The notes: a model not told the origin generated them from the sequence alone. Shown: positions 2,748 through 8,619, counted from the first letter of the stretch. The stretch: DNA of 8,773 nt from a virus (IMGVR_UViG_2695420539_000004); one strand, 5' to 3'. Numbers and translations are program-made.

Positions 2748-3176
2748 CGTTGGCCCCGCTTCTCTGAATCGCTTTATACCGCCATTCCAGCACTTCGGTC
2801 AGCGGCATAACGTCAGTAACGGATGGCGGCCAGTGAAAAATGGTGGCGATATCTGCCACCAGATCGTCAACCGTCAGGCTGTCGGTAAACCGGCAAGCAC
2901 CGACTTCTTCAACAAAAAAGTGACAACCTCAACCGACATAGCAGTGAGATCTGCCGGGTCCATCTCTGCAATTTCCTGTGCAGTCAGTGCCGGGCTGGAG
3001 ATGCGGGGGATCACGATCATCATCGCGTTCACATCCATATCCATAATCGCCTGCAGGCGTGTACCGCGCAGCGCACCGGACTGCGGTTTGCGCAGCACAA
3101 TTTCGGTGATTTCTGTTTTACCACGCTTGATAGGGGTATCCAGTTGAATGGTCTTTTCAGTCTGCTTATCGCTCAT
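2740..3176 (-). CDS. E': gpE+E' fusion chaperone produced by programmed -1 ribosomal frameshift (about 145 aa)
   Basis: After codons 87-88 (TTT TTG) of E, a -1 shift onto codon GTT (2913..2911) gives 57 further sense codons (VEEVGACRFTDSLTVDDLVADIATIFHWPPSVTDVMPLTEVLEWRYKAIQRSGANDE) ending at TGA 2742..2740. That stop overlaps the tape-measure ATG (2747..2745). I counted 174 nt = 58 codons with no internal stop. Confidence 0.7.
2874..3176 (-). CDS. E: Tail assembly chaperone (P2 gpE-like), 100 aa
   Basis: ORF-track minus ORF MSDKQTEKTIQLDTPIKRGK...VTFLLKKSVLAGLPTA. Sits between tube and tape-measure genes as in P2 and lambda (G/GT equivalent). Weak SD (AGGA) upstream. Contains slippery heptamer near its 3' end. 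Confidence 0.8.
   Translation of the reverse strand: MSDKQTEKTIQLDTPIKRGKTEITEIVLRKPQSGALRGTRLQAIMDMDVNAMMIVIPRISSPALTAQEIAEMDPADLTAMSVEVVTFLLKKSVLAGLPTA
2913..2919 (-). other. Slippery heptamer T-TTT-TTG for the E/E' -1 frameshift
   Basis: + strand caaaaaa (2913..2919) is TTTTTTG on the coding strand, in phase X-XXY-YYZ with the E frame (acT TTT TTG). Position is 12 codons before the E stop, as in tail-chaperone frameshifts of the lambda G/GT type. Confidence 0.65.
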
Positions 3177-3230: not shown

Positions 3231-3746
3231 TCAGAGGCCGAGGGCGTTACGGTGTGCTTCCATCAGGTCCACACCGTCCACGATTTCCACCATGTTGATG
3301 AGGTCCACTTCATAGAGCACCTCACCATTGATGGTCAGCTTCGCGTAGCTGTTGGTACTGGTCACTTTGGTGGTGTTGCTTTCGCCCGTCTTCCACTCGC
3401 CGGAATCCACTTCTTTGTGACGTCCACGTACCACAAGCTCCACGGCCTGCACTTCCCCGGTATCATCACGCTGGATAGAGCCGGTAAAGCGCAACTGGAT
3501 GCCATCCACCGTGGCTTTGCCCATCTGTTTAAACAGCAGCAGTTCAGTACCACCAATGGAAAATTCTGTGTCCAGAGCACTGTCATCAAGCCCCAGATCC
3601 ACATCCACTGCACCCGGCATTCCGCCGCCGCGATACTTCTCATATTTGCGGGTGAATTTCGGCAGCGTCAAAGACTCTACGATCCCCTGCCAGTTGTTCC
3701 CGTCGTTAAACAGGTTCAGATGTTTTAATTTGCGTGGTAAAGCCAT
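3231..3746 (-). CDS. FII: Tail tube protein (P2 gpFII-like), 171 aa
   Basis: ORF MALPRKLKHLNLFNDGNNWQGIV...YRGGGMPGAVDVDLGLDD... matches my recollection of the P2 FII N-terminus (MALPRKLK...) and the YRGGGM motif. GGGGA SD 5 nt before ATG. Immediately downstream of the sheath gene. Confidence 0.9.
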   Translation of the reverse strand: MALPRKLKHLNLFNDGNNWQGIVESLTLPKFTRKYEKYRGGGMPGAVDVDLGLDDSALDTEFSIGGTELLLFKQMGKATVDGIQLRFTGSIQRDDTGEVQAVELVVRGRHKEVDSGEWKTGESNTTKVTSTNSYAKLTINGEVLYEVDLINMVEIVDGVDLMEAHRNALGL

Positions 3747-3755
3747 GTTGTCCCC

Positions 3756-4928
3756 TTACGCGCTGACCTGGCTGGCAAAATTCACCAGGTACTGATCGGT
3801 GATGCGCTGACGCAGCATCAGATTTTCAAGTGGCGGCACTGGCGTGTAGTCATAGTCGATGGTGAGTTTTCCGGCTTTCAGCGTGTCTTTGTCGTTCACC
3901 GACTCGTCCAGCCAGCAATCACCACCAATGAGATACCCCTGACTGACCAGGCTGCGCATTTTGGCGCGGATACCTTCGATAATGTCGCGGGCCAGCGACG
4001 GGTTCAGCGGTTTGTCCACCGCCCACATATGCGCTTCTGCCATCGTGTCCATCAGTACCTGCGCCGTGCGGGTGTAGTTTTCGAAGGCAAAGAGCGGGTC
4101 ATCACTCAGGCAGCGGGAACCCCAGAAGCGGAAACCGTCTTTGCGGATAAGCGTGGTGACGTCGTTCTGGTTAAGCAGTCCCGCATCGGTTGCCGGGTCC
4201 TGCAGATCCCAGAACACATCTGCAGAAATTCCGGTGACACCGTTCACGCCCACGTTGGACAGGCTTTTGTGCCACCCGGTCTGCTCATCAATTTTGGCGC
4301 GCAGACCAAGCGCACGGGCGGTGGCATATGCCGTTGCTTCGGCATTCAACACCGTATCCCAGCCAGTAAAGTCGGGCCAGATCAGCATTCCTTCGCGCTG
4401 GCTGAAGTTTTCACGGTAAGTGATCGCCTCCTGTACCGTCTTGCAGCCATACGCTGACAGGTAAGCAAACCCACGCAGGCTTTGCGCCACGCTCAGCAAC
4501 TCAGTCGCAACGGCTTTGTTATCGTGACCTGGCACGCCGAGAATGCGCGGTTTAACGCCGAGCTGTGACTGGGCAGATAGCAGGGCTTTCATGCCTGTTT
4601 TTTTACCTTCAGCAGTCACAGCGCCGATGATATTGGTCGTGGTTTCGTCTTCCGTTTCACCCTGCGGCACACGCACAACAACGGTCACGGGTTTTGCCTG
4701 GTCAGCGATGGCATCCAGCGAACGGGCCAGAGTACCGGACTCACCCGCTTTACCGCTGGCAGTCAGCACATCAGTGATCAGCACGGGTTTATTAAGAGGA
4801 AACATTTTTGCATCGGCATCATCGCCCGTGCAGATCATACCCACGATGGCGGTGCTCACCGTGGTAATGGATCGGGTGCCTTCGTTGACTTCAACAACGC
4901 GCACCCCGTGGTGGTAATCCTGAGCCAT
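3756..4928 (-). CDS. FI: Contractile tail sheath protein (P2 gpFI-like), 390 aa
   Basis: [57 protein letters not shown]... with C-terminal ...[32 protein letters not shown]. Closely resembles remembered P2 FI along its whole length. Strong SD AGGAGG (4938..4943 on + as cctcct) 9 nt upstream of ATG 4928. Confidence 0.92.
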
Positions 4929-4954
4929 AGTGGCGAACCTCCTGATTGGATTAG

Positions 4955-5022
4955 GCTTCGCCCTATGTTGAAGTGATTGTGCCTGACAAACAGCTAAGCG
5001 CAGTTGTACCGTTATTCACACA
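4955..5022 (-). promoter_or_regulatory. Candidate P2-type activator-dependent late promoter for FI-FII-E-T (TGT-N12-ACA dyad)
   Basis: On the transcribed strand the 142-bp invertase-FI spacer contains TGT-gtgaataacggt-ACA (+ coordinates 5005..5022), the dyad signature described for Ogr/Delta-activated P2/P4 late promoters. Dyad centre is about 85 nt upstream of the FI ATG. The -10 is ambiguous (CACAAT or TCAACA candidates) and there is no -35, as expected for activator-dependent promoters. Confidence 0.4.
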
Positions 5023-5070
5023 AAATGACGGTATTTGTCTGCTTGCAGGGATAATCAAAATAATGCTGAT

Positions 5071-5637
5071 TCAGGGAGATTCATTGCTCTTATTTGCCGG
5101 AAATTTTCTATAAATAGTAGAAACGCCTACATCAAAAATCAGTGCAATACGCTGTCTTGATTCTCCGGCCTCAAGTAAACGCCCAATCTGTGCCCACTGT
5201 TCGGTGGTCAACTTAGGACGGCGTCCACCTACTCTGCCTTTGGCACGAGCTGCAGCCAGCCCTGCCCTGGTACGTTCAACTATCAGTTCGCGTTCCATTT
5301 CAGCCAGGGCACCCATAACATGAAAAAAGAAACGGCCCATTGGGGTACTGGTATCAATACTGTCAGTCAGGCTTCGGAAATTCACGCCACGCTGGCGCAA
5401 CTCTTCTATCAGCGTAACAAGATGCCGCATACTGCGCCCCAGTCTGTCCAGCTTCCAGACAACCAGAGTGTCTCCTGCCGATAGTGTCCTGAGCAGTTTT
5501 TTAAGCCCCGGTCTGTCGGACTTAGTGCCACTGATTTTATCCTCAAAAATCCGCTCACATCCCGCGCAGTTCAGTGCATTACGTTGCAAATCGGTGTTCT
5601 GGTCATTTGTTGACACGCGTACATAGCCAATAAGCAT
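5071..5637 (-). CDS. Site-specific DNA invertase, small serine recombinase of the Hin/Gin/Cin/Pin family (188 aa from the conserved start)
   Basis: MLIGYVRVSTNDQNTDLQRNAL...DTLVVWKLDRLGRSM...GVNFRSLTDSIDTSTPMGRFFFHVMGALAEMERELIVERT...C-terminal HTH (GVSTIYRKF). Catalytic Ser in VRVSTNDQ. Conserved start MLIGYV at 5637 has SD AGGGGA 6 nt upstream. The ORF-track start at 5682 adds 15 non-conserved residues ([15 protein letters not shown]) and is probably not used. Confidence 0.9.
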   Translation of the reverse strand: MLIGYVRVSTNDQNTDLQRNALNCAGCERIFEDKISGTKSDRPGLKKLLRTLSAGDTLVVWKLDRLGRSMRHLVTLIEELRQRGVNFRSLTDSIDTSTPMGRFFFHVMGALAEMERELIVERTRAGLAAARAKGRVGGRRPKLTTEQWAQIGRLLEAGESRQRIALIFDVGVSTIYRKFPANKSNESP

Positions 5638-5664
5638 GATCAATCCCCTGAATAAAAACCGGGG

Positions 5665-6057
5665 ATGATGCCAGTTAGCCATTATCTCTGCATTTTCATA
5701 AACGTTGGTTTGGGAGAAGCGGCTAAAAGGAATGTAGGGACAGGGGCGAATCAGATACCTGATATGGGTAGCTTCACGCTTTCTGTTTCAGGTACTGGAT
5801 ATCAAAAATTACCATCAGGTTTTATTCTTCAGTGGGGCTCAATCGGCGCACCAGGCATTGCACAGGATGTAGTAACCCATTTCCCGATTGCATTTCCAAA
5901 CAGATGTCTGCGTGTTTTGGTCTCACAAGACTACACACCAGATAGCGGGGCTGTTGGTTATATTGCCTGTGCAGGTTTTAGTCCCGACCCGGTTAAATTT
6001 ATATCCAGAGCCAGTACTCCTGGCCTCGGCGCTTCATTTTTAGCGTTAGGCTGTTAA
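5665..6057 (+). CDS. Silent alternate tail-fibre C-terminal segment (Sv'); expressed only as a fusion to the H constant region after inversion
   Basis: ORF-track frame 5665..6057 reads through the crossover site as ...[23 protein letters not shown]..., the same GLGE phase as H (LLTYLGLGEG). Functional exon is 5719..6057, about 113 aa, ending TAA 6055..6057 and followed 21 bp later by tfa'. The ATG at 5665 lies outside the segment, has no proper SD and is antisense to the invertase leader, so stand-alone expression is unlikely. Confidence 0.6.
5693..5718. repeat. Invertase crossover site (gix/hix/cix-like 26-bp site), left end of invertible segment
   Basis: TTTTCATAAACG-TT-GGTTTGGGAGAA: 12-bp half, 2-bp core, 12-bp half. 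20/26 identical to the Hin hix consensus as I recall it (TTATCAAAAACCTTGGTTTTCAAGAA). Inverted relative to the 7558..7583 site (22/26 match to its reverse complement), with complementary cores TT/AA. Confidence 0.75.
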
Positions 6058-6078
6058 TTTAGCTATATGGAGTGAAAA

Positions 6079-6519
6079 ATGAATTACATATATTCCGCGA
6101 CTACAAACTCTTTCTATCCGCTGGAGATGAAAGAGGATTACACTCAAGCTGACTCATGGCCAGATGATGCTGTTGAAGTTGATGAGCAAGTGTATATTGA
6201 GTTTTCCGGATTACCGCCGAAAGGAAAAATCCGTATCGCTGGAGAAAATGGTTTTCCTGCATGGTCCGAAATTCCACCACCAACACATGAGGAACAAATT
6301 GCTGCAGCCGAACTGGAGAAGCAGCAATTGATTAATCAGGCCAACGATTATATGAACAGTAAACAATGGCCTGGTAAAGCGGCTATTGGTCGTCTGAAAG
6401 GTGACGAACTGGCGCAATATAATTTGTGGCTGGATTACCTGGACGCACTGGAACTGGTCGATACTTCCGGTGCGCCAGATATTGAATGGCCTACGCCTCC
6501 GGCAGTTCAGGCCAGATGA
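6079..6519 (+). CDS. tfa: Alternate tail-fibre assembly chaperone (Tfa', Mu U'/P2 gpG family), 146 aa
   Basis: MNYIYSATTNSFYPLEMKEDY...QYNLWLDYLDALELVDTSGAPDIEWPTPP: characteristic Tfa N-terminus and conserved C-terminal motif. GGAG SD 7 nt upstream (6068..6071). Lies directly after Sv' within the invertible segment. Confidence 0.85.
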   Translation: MNYIYSATTNSFYPLEMKEDYTQADSWPDDAVEVDEQVYIEFSGLPPKGKIRIAGENGFPAWSEIPPPTHEEQIAAAELEKQQLINQANDYMNSKQWPGKAAIGRLKGDELAQYNLWLDYLDALELVDTSGAPDIEWPTPPAVQAR

Positions 6520-7093
6520 CATCCGGCGCGGTGCTGGTATCTGTTGCCGTCACCGCGTCAATGTAATCCAGCACAGCGTTAAGTCGGGTGGTTTCTGCCT
6601 GCGTCAGCTTCCGCCCGGCCTGCAATTTCAGTTGAATCAGACTGATGGAAGCCATTGCAGTATCAATCAGTGACTGACGCTGTGCTTCTGCCGCGTCTAC
6701 TGCGGCGCAATGCTGTGCCTCAGTATCGGTCACCCATTTCTCACCATCCCATTTATCGAATGGCGTTAACGGGGCGATAGTGGTTGTATTTTCAGGGTAA
6801 TCACCCGGAGTTGTGATTTCTTTGGCGTCTCCCGTTTCGGTGTTATAGATGATTTCACCGCGATGGTCTGGCACATACTCCCATGAGTTTAAATCTGCTG
6901 AACGGCAGATTGCATAACCAGCTTTATGTATACCTGGTGCATCTAAACAAGAACATGCCGGGATACCGACGCCAACAGCAAGATATTCAGTTGATGTGGA
7001 AAGATATTCCCGCGTCTTGCTGTCGTAGTTAAACACGGTCACATCACCCGCTACCGTGGCAATCAGTTCGCTGTTTAATTTTGCCTGTGCCAT
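6491..7093 (-). CDS. tfa: Tail-fibre assembly chaperone (Tfa, P2 gpG / Mu U family), 200 aa; currently in the expressed orientation
   Basis: MAQAKLNSELIATVAGDVTVFNYDSKTREY...RLNAVLDYIDAVTATDTSTAPDVIWPELPEA. Start ATG overlaps the H stop (TAATG at 7091..7095). Typical enterobacterial Tfa C-terminal motif. Confidence 0.9.
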   Translation of the reverse strand: MAQAKLNSELIATVAGDVTVFNYDSKTREYLSTSTEYLAVGVGIPACSCLDAPGIHKAGYAICRSADLNSWEYVPDHRGEIIYNTETGDAKEITTPGDYPENTTTIAPLTPFDKWDGEKWVTDTEAQHCAAVDAAEAQRQSLIDTAMASISLIQLKLQAGRKLTQAETTRLNAVLDYIDAVTATDTSTAPDVIWPELPEA

Positions 7094-8619
7094 TATGCAG
7101 CCCTCACAATGAAGTTAAATGCGACGTTGCGCGGCCGGTTTTCAGTGGCAACAGGAACGATTTTAGATGCATCAAAGCTAAAGTTTACAGTCCCATTACC
7201 TGCCCCTGAAGGCGCAAGAGTTAATCCTAAAGTTTGTGACACATTCTCAACAGTGACGCCAAATGCACCATCACAATAGATACTTGGGTACAATTGAGTA
7301 TTACCAAACTTGCCAATTATATTTCTGATGGCATCGCCCTGCGATGATAAGATTGCACGCCCAACATCAACCCCGCGCCCGTCATCCCAGCCGCGAATAA
7401 ATTCACCGCGTAAATCAGGCAATTTATTTGTCGGGTAAGCCTTTGCCAGTTCCGGGTATTCTTCAGCAGAAAAAGCCGCACCATTGCATTTCAGCCAGCC
7501 TGTTGGCGGAGTGGCTGAAGGCCACGGAACAGGCACACCAACAGGCAATGCAGAGCCTTCTCCCAAACCAAGGTATGTGAGAAGACCAGCTACATCCTTT
7601 CCACTCAAATTGGTAAGCGTATTGTCCAGCGGTTGTTTACCTGCCAGCGCATTAAGCATTGTCGTGGCAAAGTTCGGATCATTCCCCAGTGCCGCCGCCA
7701 GTTCGTTCAGTGTATCCAGTGCAGCAGGTGCAGAACCCACCATTCCTGCAATCGCCGATTTCACAAAAGCCGTAGTGGCAATCTGTGTATTGTTGACCGA
7801 CTGCGCCGCCGTGGGGGCTGTTGGCGTTCCGGTGAGTGCCGGACTCGACAACGGTGCTTTTAGTGCCAGCGCATTGTTAATGGTGGTACTGAAATTCGGA
7901 TCATTGTTAATGGCTGCGGCTATTTCTTTCAGCGTGTCCAGCGTGGCTGGCGCACCATTAATAAGGGCCGTCAGTGCCGCCTGTACAAACGCAGTGGTCG
8001 CAACCTGCGTGGTATTATTCCCCGCCGCTGGCGTTGGCGCTTTGGGGGTTCCGGTAAATGTCGGGCTGGCTTTTGGCGCGTACTGTGAATGCGGGTCCGG
8101 TGCGGCAAGATGTTTTGCCATCTGATCATCCGCGTACACCTTCAGCTCCAGTGCCTTGTCATCCACATACTTGCGGGTTGCCAGCACTACAGCAGGGTCG
8201 ATTTTCAGGGTGATATTGTCCGTGCTGCTGGTAATCAGCACCATGCGCACGGTCTGAGTGCGCCCGCTACCTTCAGCCAGTTGCGGCTTATAGCTTTCCG
8301 GGCAGTTGCCCACGGCAATCAATGCCCCGGACTCATCAAACAGACCCACTTCACGTATCCACCAACCGCCCTCGTTTTCAGGGATCACCTGTTCGGCAAT
8401 AATCTGGCTGCTGTTCTGCGGGTCGATATAAAGCATATTCAGCGCAGCCCGGCGTTTCTCATTTACCAGTGCCGTCTGTTTTGCGTCCGGCGTTGGCAAT
8501 ACTCCACCGCCATCGCCCACCGCCATATGGGTAATTTTTAGCGGCACACCGAGCGCGGCGGCGCTGGCAAGTTTCGCCGCGCCAATATCCGTCAGCAGGG
8601 TATAAAATTTTGTGCTCAT
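7093..8619 (-). CDS. H: Tail fibre protein (P2 gpH-like constant N-terminal part 7584..8619 fused to a variable C-terminal receptor-binding part 7093..7557 with tail-collar motifs), 508 aa
   Basis: N-terminus MSTKFYTLLTDIGAAKLASAAALGVPLKITHMAVGDGGG resembles P2 H. Two fibre-shaft repeats (...NNTQ[VI]ATTAFV...LDTL.E.AAA...NDPNF.TT..NALA.K.P). C-terminal part has tail-collar-type motifs (PTGWLKCNGAAFS..YPEL...LPDLRGEFIRGWDDGRGVD.GR). Start ATG overlaps the stop of the upstream gene (ATGA). Confidence 0.92.
   Translation of the reverse strand: MSTKFYTLLTDIGAAKLASAAALGVPLKITHMAVGDGGGVLPTPDAKQTALVNEKRRAALNMLYIDPQNSSQIIAEQVIPENEGGWWIREVGLFDESGALIAVGNCPESYKPQLAEGSGRTQTVRMVLITSSTDNITLKIDPAVVLATRKYVDDKALELKVYADDQMAKHLAAPDPHSQYAPKASPTFTGTPKAPTPAAGNNTTQVATTAFVQAALTALINGAPATLDTLKEIAAAINNDPNFSTTINNALALKAPLSSPALTGTPTAPTAAQSVNNTQIATTAFVKSAIAGMVGSAPAALDTLNELAAALGNDPNFATTMLNALAGKQPLDNTLTNLSGKDVAGLLTYLGLGEGSALPVGVPVPWPSATPPTGWLKCNGAAFSAEEYPELAKAYPTNKLPDLRGEFIRGWDDGRGVDVGRAILSSQGDAIRNIIGKFGNTQLYPSIYCDGAFGVTVENVSQTLGLTLAPSGAGNGTVNFSFDASKIVPVATENRPRNVAFNFIVRAA
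7558..7583. repeat. Invertase crossover site embedded in the H coding sequence (constant/variable junction), right end of invertible segment
   Basis: TTCTCCCAAACC-AA-GGTATGTGAGAA. Left half is identical to the reverse complement of the right half of the 5693..5718 site (TTCTCCCAAACC). Encodes LLTYLGLGE (H residues 346-354). Confidence 0.75.
7630..8067 (-). repeat. Diverged intragenic tandem duplication (2 x about 72 codons) encoding the tail-fibre shaft repeat
   Basis: H residues about 185-256 and 259-330 align (SPTFTGTPKAPT...NNTTQVATTAFVQAA...LDTLKEIAAAINNDPNFSTTINNALALKAP vs SPALTGTPTAPT...NNTQIATTAFVKSA...LDTLNELAAALGNDPNFATTMLNALAGKQP). Visible at DNA level as two similar roughly 215-bp blocks. 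Confidence 0.55.

Follow-up and report, generated by a model that had tools for sequence, protein, structure and literature searches.

A putative P2-type late promoter upstream of the tail sheath gene in a Fels-2-like Escherichia coli prophage

The four late promoters of phage P2 (PP, PO, PV, and PF) have the dyad TGT-N12-ACA in common, and their activity requires the zinc-finger protein Ogr as activator (PMC3931495, a secondary source). The inverted repeats that Ogr binds have their centre at about −55 (secondary source, PMC3152322), and Ogr must contact RNA polymerase's alpha subunit (PMC3152322 and PMC7552054, also secondary). Promoters of both P2 and P4 went into the dyad consensus (PMC3931495, citing Christie & Calendar 1985 and Julien & Calendar 1995; PMC3152322). 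The P4 promoters Psid and PLL and the late promoters of coliphage 186 (Delta, B) have the same activator family and dyad consensus as the locus described here, although P4 is a satellite element and 186 belongs to a different phage lineage.

We took the P2 sites and starts from the annotation of the P2 RefSeq/GenBank record. There, pO and pP share one activator site, centred at 3072, with mapped starts at 3127 and 3016. The pV site is centred at 10252.5, and its mapped start (10308) is the V start codon itself, making the message leaderless. The pF site has its centre at about 17569.5, roughly 82 nt before the FI ATG, and the mapped starts (17626-17628) are about 57 nt downstream of that centre and 24-26 nt before FI. 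According to this record, activator-site centres and starts are 55-58 nt apart. The P2 sites are imperfect, with TGT-N12-CCA at both pF and pO/pP and a different spacing at pV.

The window analysed here is an 8,773-nt stretch of viral DNA (IMGVR_UViG_2695420539_000004). Its − strand carries the tail-fibre gene H (8619-7093) and the fibre chaperone (tail fibre assembly) gene G (7093-6491), a serine DNA invertase gene of the Gin/Cin/Hin type (5071-5637; Pfam Resolvase, 2.9e-53, and HTH_7), and a tail operon. The first operon gene is the tail sheath gene FI (3756-4928; Pfam Phage_sheath_1, Phage_sheath_1C, and Gp18_domIII_N), whose product is 68% identical to P2 FI. The second is the tail tube gene FII (3231-3746; Phage_tube, 8.8e-60), and gene E (3176-2874) and the tape-measure gene follow. 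A GC-rich hairpin followed by TTTTT lies in the E/E' overlap (2841-2861, − strand). A programmed −1 frameshift is known for P2 E/E', and the hairpin is probably tied to a frameshift of this type, not to termination.

Two Pfam-assigned ORFs on the + strand encode an alternative fibre tip (5665-6057) and an alternative fibre chaperone (Caudo_TAP; 6079-6519). They are part of an invertible segment of about 1.9 kb (5693-7583), flanked by 27-nt inverted repeats (5693-5719 and 7557-7583) that are 85% complementary. The 3' part of H and gene G are read one way in this segment, and the alternative tip and chaperone the other way. The features of a fibre switch of the Gin/Cin/Pin/Hin type are present: a serine invertase, crossover repeats, and oppositely oriented tip and chaperone ORFs. 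The invertase is annotated from 5637 in E. coli SL124, and its frame is open back to 5682, running 15 codons (5638-5682, − strand) upstream of the conserved start. The true start is probably the ATG at 5637 (MLIGYVRVSTNDQ).

Between the invertase gene and FI, the + strand sequence TGTACCGTTATTCACACA (5005-5022) is an exact TGT-N12-ACA, just as the first-pass annotation had reported. On the − strand it reads TGTGTGAATAACGGTACA, and its flanks extend the dyad to TTGT...ACAA (5023-5004). The centre is at 5013.5, 85.5 nt ahead of the FI ATG. The annotation had the spacing right, but its wording that the dyad is "on the transcribed strand" is empty because TGT-N12-ACA is its own reverse complement. 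Its description of 4929-5070 as the only sizeable intergenic region also stands: this 142-nt gap, bounded by the invertase stop (5071) and the sheath ATG (4928), is the largest non-coding stretch among the − strand genes. The motif is not enriched across the whole window, which has four matches versus 2.65 expected (at least four were found in 55 of 200 shuffles of the window). The other three matches (1700, 3695, and 7235) are all within coding sequence, and the expected number for the 142-nt gap is about 0.04. By itself, the match in the gap would be no more than suggestive. Without window-wide enrichment, the case for the dyad rests on its position and its conservation.

The position is that of the F-operon late promoter in P2, as had been proposed: the dyad is 85.5 nt before the FI ATG here and about 82 nt before it in P2. 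P2 PF is likewise the first promoter of a sheath/tube operon (FI-FII-E-T-U-D in P2), and it too has a weak −35 element, a short leader, and, with its centre 55-58 nt ahead of the start, a partial TGT-N12-ACA dyad. P2 also resembles the window's lineage in encoding an Ogr-family activator after gene D and in having the same type of site at other late operons. However, pF has TGT-N12-CCA where the window has a perfect TGT-N12-ACA. The upstream neighbour in P2 is the divergent Z/fun gene, whereas here it is a co-oriented invertase gene that lacks a terminator, and the leader is about 30 nt here compared with about 25 nt in P2. Because the P2 sites are imperfect, the window's dyad is closer to the published consensus than are P2's own sites. 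Pairwise alignment of the intergenic sequence with P2 pF gave no meaningful alignment, and for that reason we used a motif-anchored comparison. Comparison with the P2 late promoters, suggested with the original prediction, therefore upheld the position and the site-to-start distance but not the sequence, since pF cannot be aligned and the P2 dyads are imperfect. Motif and geometry, and not sequence similarity, are the grounds for homology to the characterised promoter.

Fels-2 has the same layout as the window. Its DNA invertase gene ends about 100 nt before FI, and it has an exact dyad (TGTACCAGCACTGACACA) at −90. Fels-2 and SopEPhi (Felsduovirus) have the window's order of fibre, invertible segment, invertase, and FI, with sheath proteins 91% identical, and SopEPhi has kept an invertase fragment before FI. 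Unlike the layout, their intergenic sequence belongs to a different family from that of the window, and the match is confined to the gene's first 48 nt. Classification places the window's lineage with Escherichia phage 500465-1 (Wadgaonvirus) and Klebsiella prophages. The window's identity to Klebsiella and Escherichia Peduoviridae, among them Kp4845-2 and phage 500465-1, is about 95%.

To assess conservation, we gathered 160 loci that encode relatives of the sheath protein. One set consisted of 80 IMG/VR viral loci with sheath proteins at least 90% identical to that of the window. The other consisted of 80 species-representative genomes with 73-99% identical sheath proteins, ranging from Escherichia, Enterobacter, Pantoea, and Serratia to Photorhabdus, Xenorhabdus, Providencia, and some Pseudomonas. 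An exact dyad begins 87-94 nt before the sheath ATG in all 80 IMG/VR loci, whose intergenic sequences form at least 19 clusters below 80% identity. The same placement of an exact dyad was found in 69 of the 80 species representatives, and five more have TGT-N12-ACT at the dyad position. Altogether, 149 of the 160 related loci have an exact dyad 75-105 nt upstream of the sheath ATG. As background, the remaining million bases of these loci have the motif at a rate of 0.0075 per 31-nt window. The placement of the dyad before the sheath gene is not due to chance.

We then built an ungapped, dyad-anchored profile from 42 representatives with less than 75% identity. TTGT and ACA do not vary in it. 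The 12-nt spacer does, its one preference being TGT(G/A)(C/T)CA. The remaining strongly conserved columns are a TG 30 nt after the first T, the pattern A-n-CAT-A, and an A 7 nt beyond the T of that pattern. Read as a sigma-70 promoter, these columns would correspond to a TG at −34/−33, a 17-nt spacer, A-11, T-7, and A+1, and they put the dyad centre at −55.5 from a predicted start at A4958.

In the window, the predicted −35-like element is CTGTTT (4988-4993, − strand), a weak match (2/6 to the hexamer consensus) of which only the TG (4992-4991, −34/−33) is conserved across families. The predicted −10 hexamer is CAACAT (4965-4970, − strand), with A-11 at 4969 and T-7 at 4965. It matches the sigma-70 consensus at three of six positions, but in the family consensus, nAnCAT, the A and the C-A-T are nearly invariant and at a fixed distance from the dyad. 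A sigma-70 consensus scan found no promoter match on the − strand, which is expected of an activator-dependent promoter. The conserved A column and the dyad-to-start distance place the predicted start at 4957-4959 (− strand), most likely near A4958. This agrees with the start near 4958 that had been predicted initially, which coincides with the conserved A, 7 nt past the nAnCAT hexamer. The CAT of the −10 element is also complementary to the FI AUG, and so a hairpin (see below), not sigma-70 contacts, could explain part of its conservation. The comparison yields a late-promoter architecture of the Felsduovirus-like kind, with the activator site centred at −55.5, TG at −34/−33, nAnCAT at −12 to −7, and A at +1. 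On the + strand, a sigma-70-like TTGTCT-18-AATAAT (5035-5064) is antisense to the 3' end of the invertase gene, and it does not exceed shuffle expectation.

The window is 99.9% identical to a prophage in the E. coli SL124 chromosome (6 of 8,773 positions differ, none of them within 4900-5100), and this gave us a view of the whole element. The coordinate of this prophage locus (L167) is the window coordinate plus 20000. It has an ogr/Delta-like gene after gene D, outside the 8.8-kb window, with the motif CX2CX22CX4C. Of the nine TGT-N12-ACA matches in the 31-kb prophage, just three fall wholly between genes: PF, which is the site studied here, PV before V, and PO/PP between the divergent genes O and P. 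Intergenic sequence makes up 4.7% of the prophage DNA (binomial p = 0.007 for three intergenic dyads). Phage 500465-1 has the same dyad layout at its late operons and an Ogr homologue that is 56% identical to P2 Ogr (Pfam Ogr_Delta, 9e-21).

In SL124, the ATG codons of V and of the terminase gene P are each exactly 55.5 nt from the centre of their own dyad (L167 31043-31107 and 36998-37064). We extended the V analysis to 80 further loci (L168-L247). In 74 of them the V ATG is 55.5 nt from the dyad centre, and in the remaining six it deviates from this by no more than 1 nt. All 80 V-upstream sequences, which include at least six unrelated ones, have an A at −11 and a T at −7 before the leaderless V ATG. 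Within this phage group, the constant distance fixes the spacing of activator site and start independently of PF, which supports a start at 4958. The placement of the V start codon, and here also that of P, at 55.5 nt from a dyad centre implies leaderless messages. Judging from the sequence, translation of V and P would then depend on the late-promoter start.

Taken together, the dyad is very probably the activator-binding site (5005-5022, extended 5004-5023, − strand) of a PF-type late promoter in a P2-like (Fels-2-like) E. coli prophage, with an Ogr/Delta-family protein as the predicted ligand. The features of a P2-type late promoter are present, namely the dyad, a poor core promoter, a location at the head of a late operon, and a cognate activator gene (in SL124). 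By the mechanism established for P2, a small zinc-finger activator of the Ogr/Delta/B family would bind the dyad late in the lytic cycle and contact the alpha subunit of host RNA polymerase. Polymerase would thereby be recruited to a core promoter presumed too weak to work alone (CTGTTT, 4993-4988; CAACAT, 4970-4965), and transcription from about A4958 would proceed on the − strand through the sheath, tube, and remaining tail genes. We infer Ogr binding, the exact start, and activator dependence from sequence. The first-pass annotation's claim that sheath and tube expression is Ogr-dependent gains support from the putative sites at PF, PV, and PO/PP and from the ogr/Delta gene in the 99.9% identical prophage, but it is weakened by the absence of an upstream terminator, which makes read-through likely. 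The P2-type Ogr-dependent late promoter is already a well-known kind of element, here found in a Fels-2-type context.

The promoter assignment mainly improves annotation, and this type of prophage is common: the window has a match in 3,242 of 5,426 complete E. coli genomes, and in 318 the match covers at least 80% of its length. No promoter features are annotated in the public records of its relatives.

We also compared what lies upstream of the promoter. In most close relatives, this promoter module comes after an intact invertase gene. It is also found behind invertase remnants of 17-122 codons (L027, L038, and L045), straight after the chaperone gene G (L039), and behind unrelated DNA (L020 and L040). 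Homology among close relatives stops 5-33 nt upstream of the TGT. By sequence comparison, the G-FI gap is a mosaic junction at which the predicted promoter is always preserved. Only the last 17-122 invertase codons are left in L027, L038, L045, and L085 (SopEPhi), which shows that deletion or replacement has recurred at this junction. The gap thus takes in cassettes (invertase, sopE, and others) without disturbing the control of the tail genes. It had been proposed that the invertase cassette was inserted upstream of an intact late promoter. The promoter does appear intact, but insertion and repeated loss of an ancestral cassette both fit the data, and the cassette could have originated either way.

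The proposed independence from fibre orientation holds as far as the layout of the promoter goes. The promoter is outside the crossover repeats (5693-5719 and 7557-7583) and 671 nt from the nearest crossover site of the invertible segment, so fibre inversion cannot rearrange it. Inversion would switch the tip that is made and leave control of the tail operon untouched. A weak terminator-like hairpin followed by TTTATT (5676-5647, − strand) lies between the crossover site and the invertase ATG, and it could be an attenuator of read-through from the fibre operon.

A different explanation denies the dyad any promoter function and makes it a leftover or a coincidence, with FI and the other tail genes depending entirely on read-through transcripts that enter from the fibre operon and the invertase gene. 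The motif's lack of enrichment across the window would fit this. In addition, we found no − strand intrinsic terminator between the invertase stop and the dyad in the window's sequence family, and so read-through transcription into FI is likely. Against this, many unrelated intergenic sequences share an invariant TGT and ACA and fixed distances to −10- and −35-like elements. The module is kept whatever lies upstream of it, including, in many other sequence families, a strong terminator immediately before the dyad. Furthermore, the leader contains a hairpin that, by prediction, would hide the FI AUG in read-through RNA. We therefore consider it very unlikely that read-through is the only source of tail-gene expression.

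It is more improbable still that the dyad serves another regulator, either host CRP or a PpsR/CrtJ-type protein. The − strand sequence TGTGA-N6-GTACA (5020-5005) matches the CRP core TGTGA-N6-TCACA at eight of ten positions, but the TGTGA register occurs only in the window's sequence family, and others have TGTGCCA, TGTATCA, or TGTACCA. A CRP-like site would also be centred at about −54.5, which is off the usual class I CRP positions. We rejected the CRP-like reading, since the N12 register alone stays the same from family to family. Written out, TGT-N12-ACA is identical to the PpsR/CrtJ site of purple bacteria (PMC4452267 and others), but that site belongs to photosynthetic bacteria and not to enterobacterial phages. 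The Ogr-family gene and the matching dyads at other late operons of the same prophage argue against any regulator of another kind.

A longer imperfect inverted repeat, ACCGTCATT and AATAACGGT (5031-5023 and 5016-5008, − strand), overlaps the left half-site of the dyad with a centre offset by 6 nt (5008-5031), and although it is situated just past the invertase stop codon and forms a stem in the minimum-free-energy fold of the intergenic RNA, it is extremely unlikely that a 3' stem-loop of the invertase mRNA or a read-through attenuator accounts for the dyad, because the stem has no U-run after it, is restricted to the window's sequence family, has variants that alter a single arm with no matching change (such as ACCGTTATT with AATAACGAC), and leaves the invariance of TGT and ACA in families without the repeat unexplained.

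With the dyad read as the activator site of PF, the leader of FI has a second feature. An inverted repeat at 4926-4967 (− strand) could form an RNA hairpin. Its left arm, CAUAGGGCGAA (4967-4957), covers the −10 to +1 region, and its right arm, UUCGCC-A-CUAUG (4937-4926), includes the FI start codon. The Shine-Dalgarno sequence AGGAGG (4943-4938) is within the inner stem. The full hairpin is possible only in RNA that begins upstream of PF. In folding predictions, RNA from 4972 has a free energy of −19.6 kcal/mol (z = −3.3), compared with −8.7 kcal/mol (z = −0.2) for RNA from 4958. Predicted accessibility of the AUG in the window is 0.00 with an upstream 5' end and 0.43 with a 5' end past the CAT, and the mean predicted probability that the AUG is unpaired rises from 0.13 to 0.44 between these two states.

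Other families pair the same two regions using different sequences: CAUAGGCAG with CUGCCUUAUG, CAUAAGGCAU with AUGCCUUAUG, CAUGGGUGAA with UUCAUUCAUG, CAUGUAGCGG with CCGCUACAUG, and CAUAACGAAA with UUUCGCUAUG. In P2 pF, CACUCA, which ends at the mapped start, pairs with UGAGUG of the start-codon region. Over 16 families, native full-arm pairs average −12.3 kcal/mol versus −8.7 kcal/mol for cross-family pairs (permutation p = 5e-5). The result is the same when the constant CAT/AUG is left out (p = 5e-5). For the part of the arm strictly upstream of +1, p = 4e-4, and for the part downstream of +1, p = 0.17. Control windows elsewhere in the upstream region gave p = 0.14-0.94. These permutation results support selection for the pairing.

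Alignment-based tests were less clear. RNAalifold, run on 30 leaders aligned with MAFFT, found no consensus structure, as the register differs from family to family owing to bulges. In a covariance-model alignment, 66.6% of cells were paired, compared with 32-42% when the partners were slid. Column-wise covariation was marginal (0.145 versus 0.120 in shuffles, with 4 of 500 shuffles reaching 0.145), which the same register shifts explain. An Rfam search of 4800-5800 at a permissive threshold returned chance-level hits only. Hairpin strength differed with the presence of an upstream terminator (means of −14.4 versus −12.3 kcal/mol, p = 0.006), a comparison that is confounded by relatedness and that we did not use as evidence because the window's family dominates one class.

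IS10 offers a precedent. Its inverted repeat supplies a 5' arm upstream of the element's own start, and only externally initiated RNA sequesters the translation start. This "fold-back inhibition" of IS10/Tn10 was reportedly described by Davis, Simons, and Kleckner in 1985 (Cell 43:379, a reference listed in PMC13181058). The FI leader is similar in that the 5' arm is upstream of the element's predicted start and would pair with the translation start. IS10 guards its transposase in this way, whereas the FI hairpin would guard a phage structural operon. If it acts so, only RNA begun at the Ogr-dependent start would lack the 5' arm and be translatable, and the AUG would be buried in read-through RNA from the invertase gene (for example, in a lysogen), the fibre operon, or stray promoters. 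Untranslated FI would in turn expose read-through RNA to Rho-dependent polarity. We regard this function as possible but rather doubtful. P2 PP has a similar hairpin that brackets its start site, and no upstream co-directional operon is known there, which weakens the read-through rationale.

If the fold-back model is true, it would account for a constitutive invertase gene lying directly upstream without a terminator. Together with leaderless V and P, it would also make the position of the 5' end the licence for translating each late operon's first gene in P2-like phages. If confirmed, the hairpin would be a post-transcriptional safeguard in a system so far viewed as transcriptional only.

Finally, the predicted fold of the whole 175-nt region (z = −3.0) includes a pairing across the dyad, between CUGCAAGCAGAC and GCUGUUUGUCAGG (4981-4993 with 5040-5050, − strand). 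The left arm of this pairing is where homology with the invertase-less loci L039 and L020 begins.
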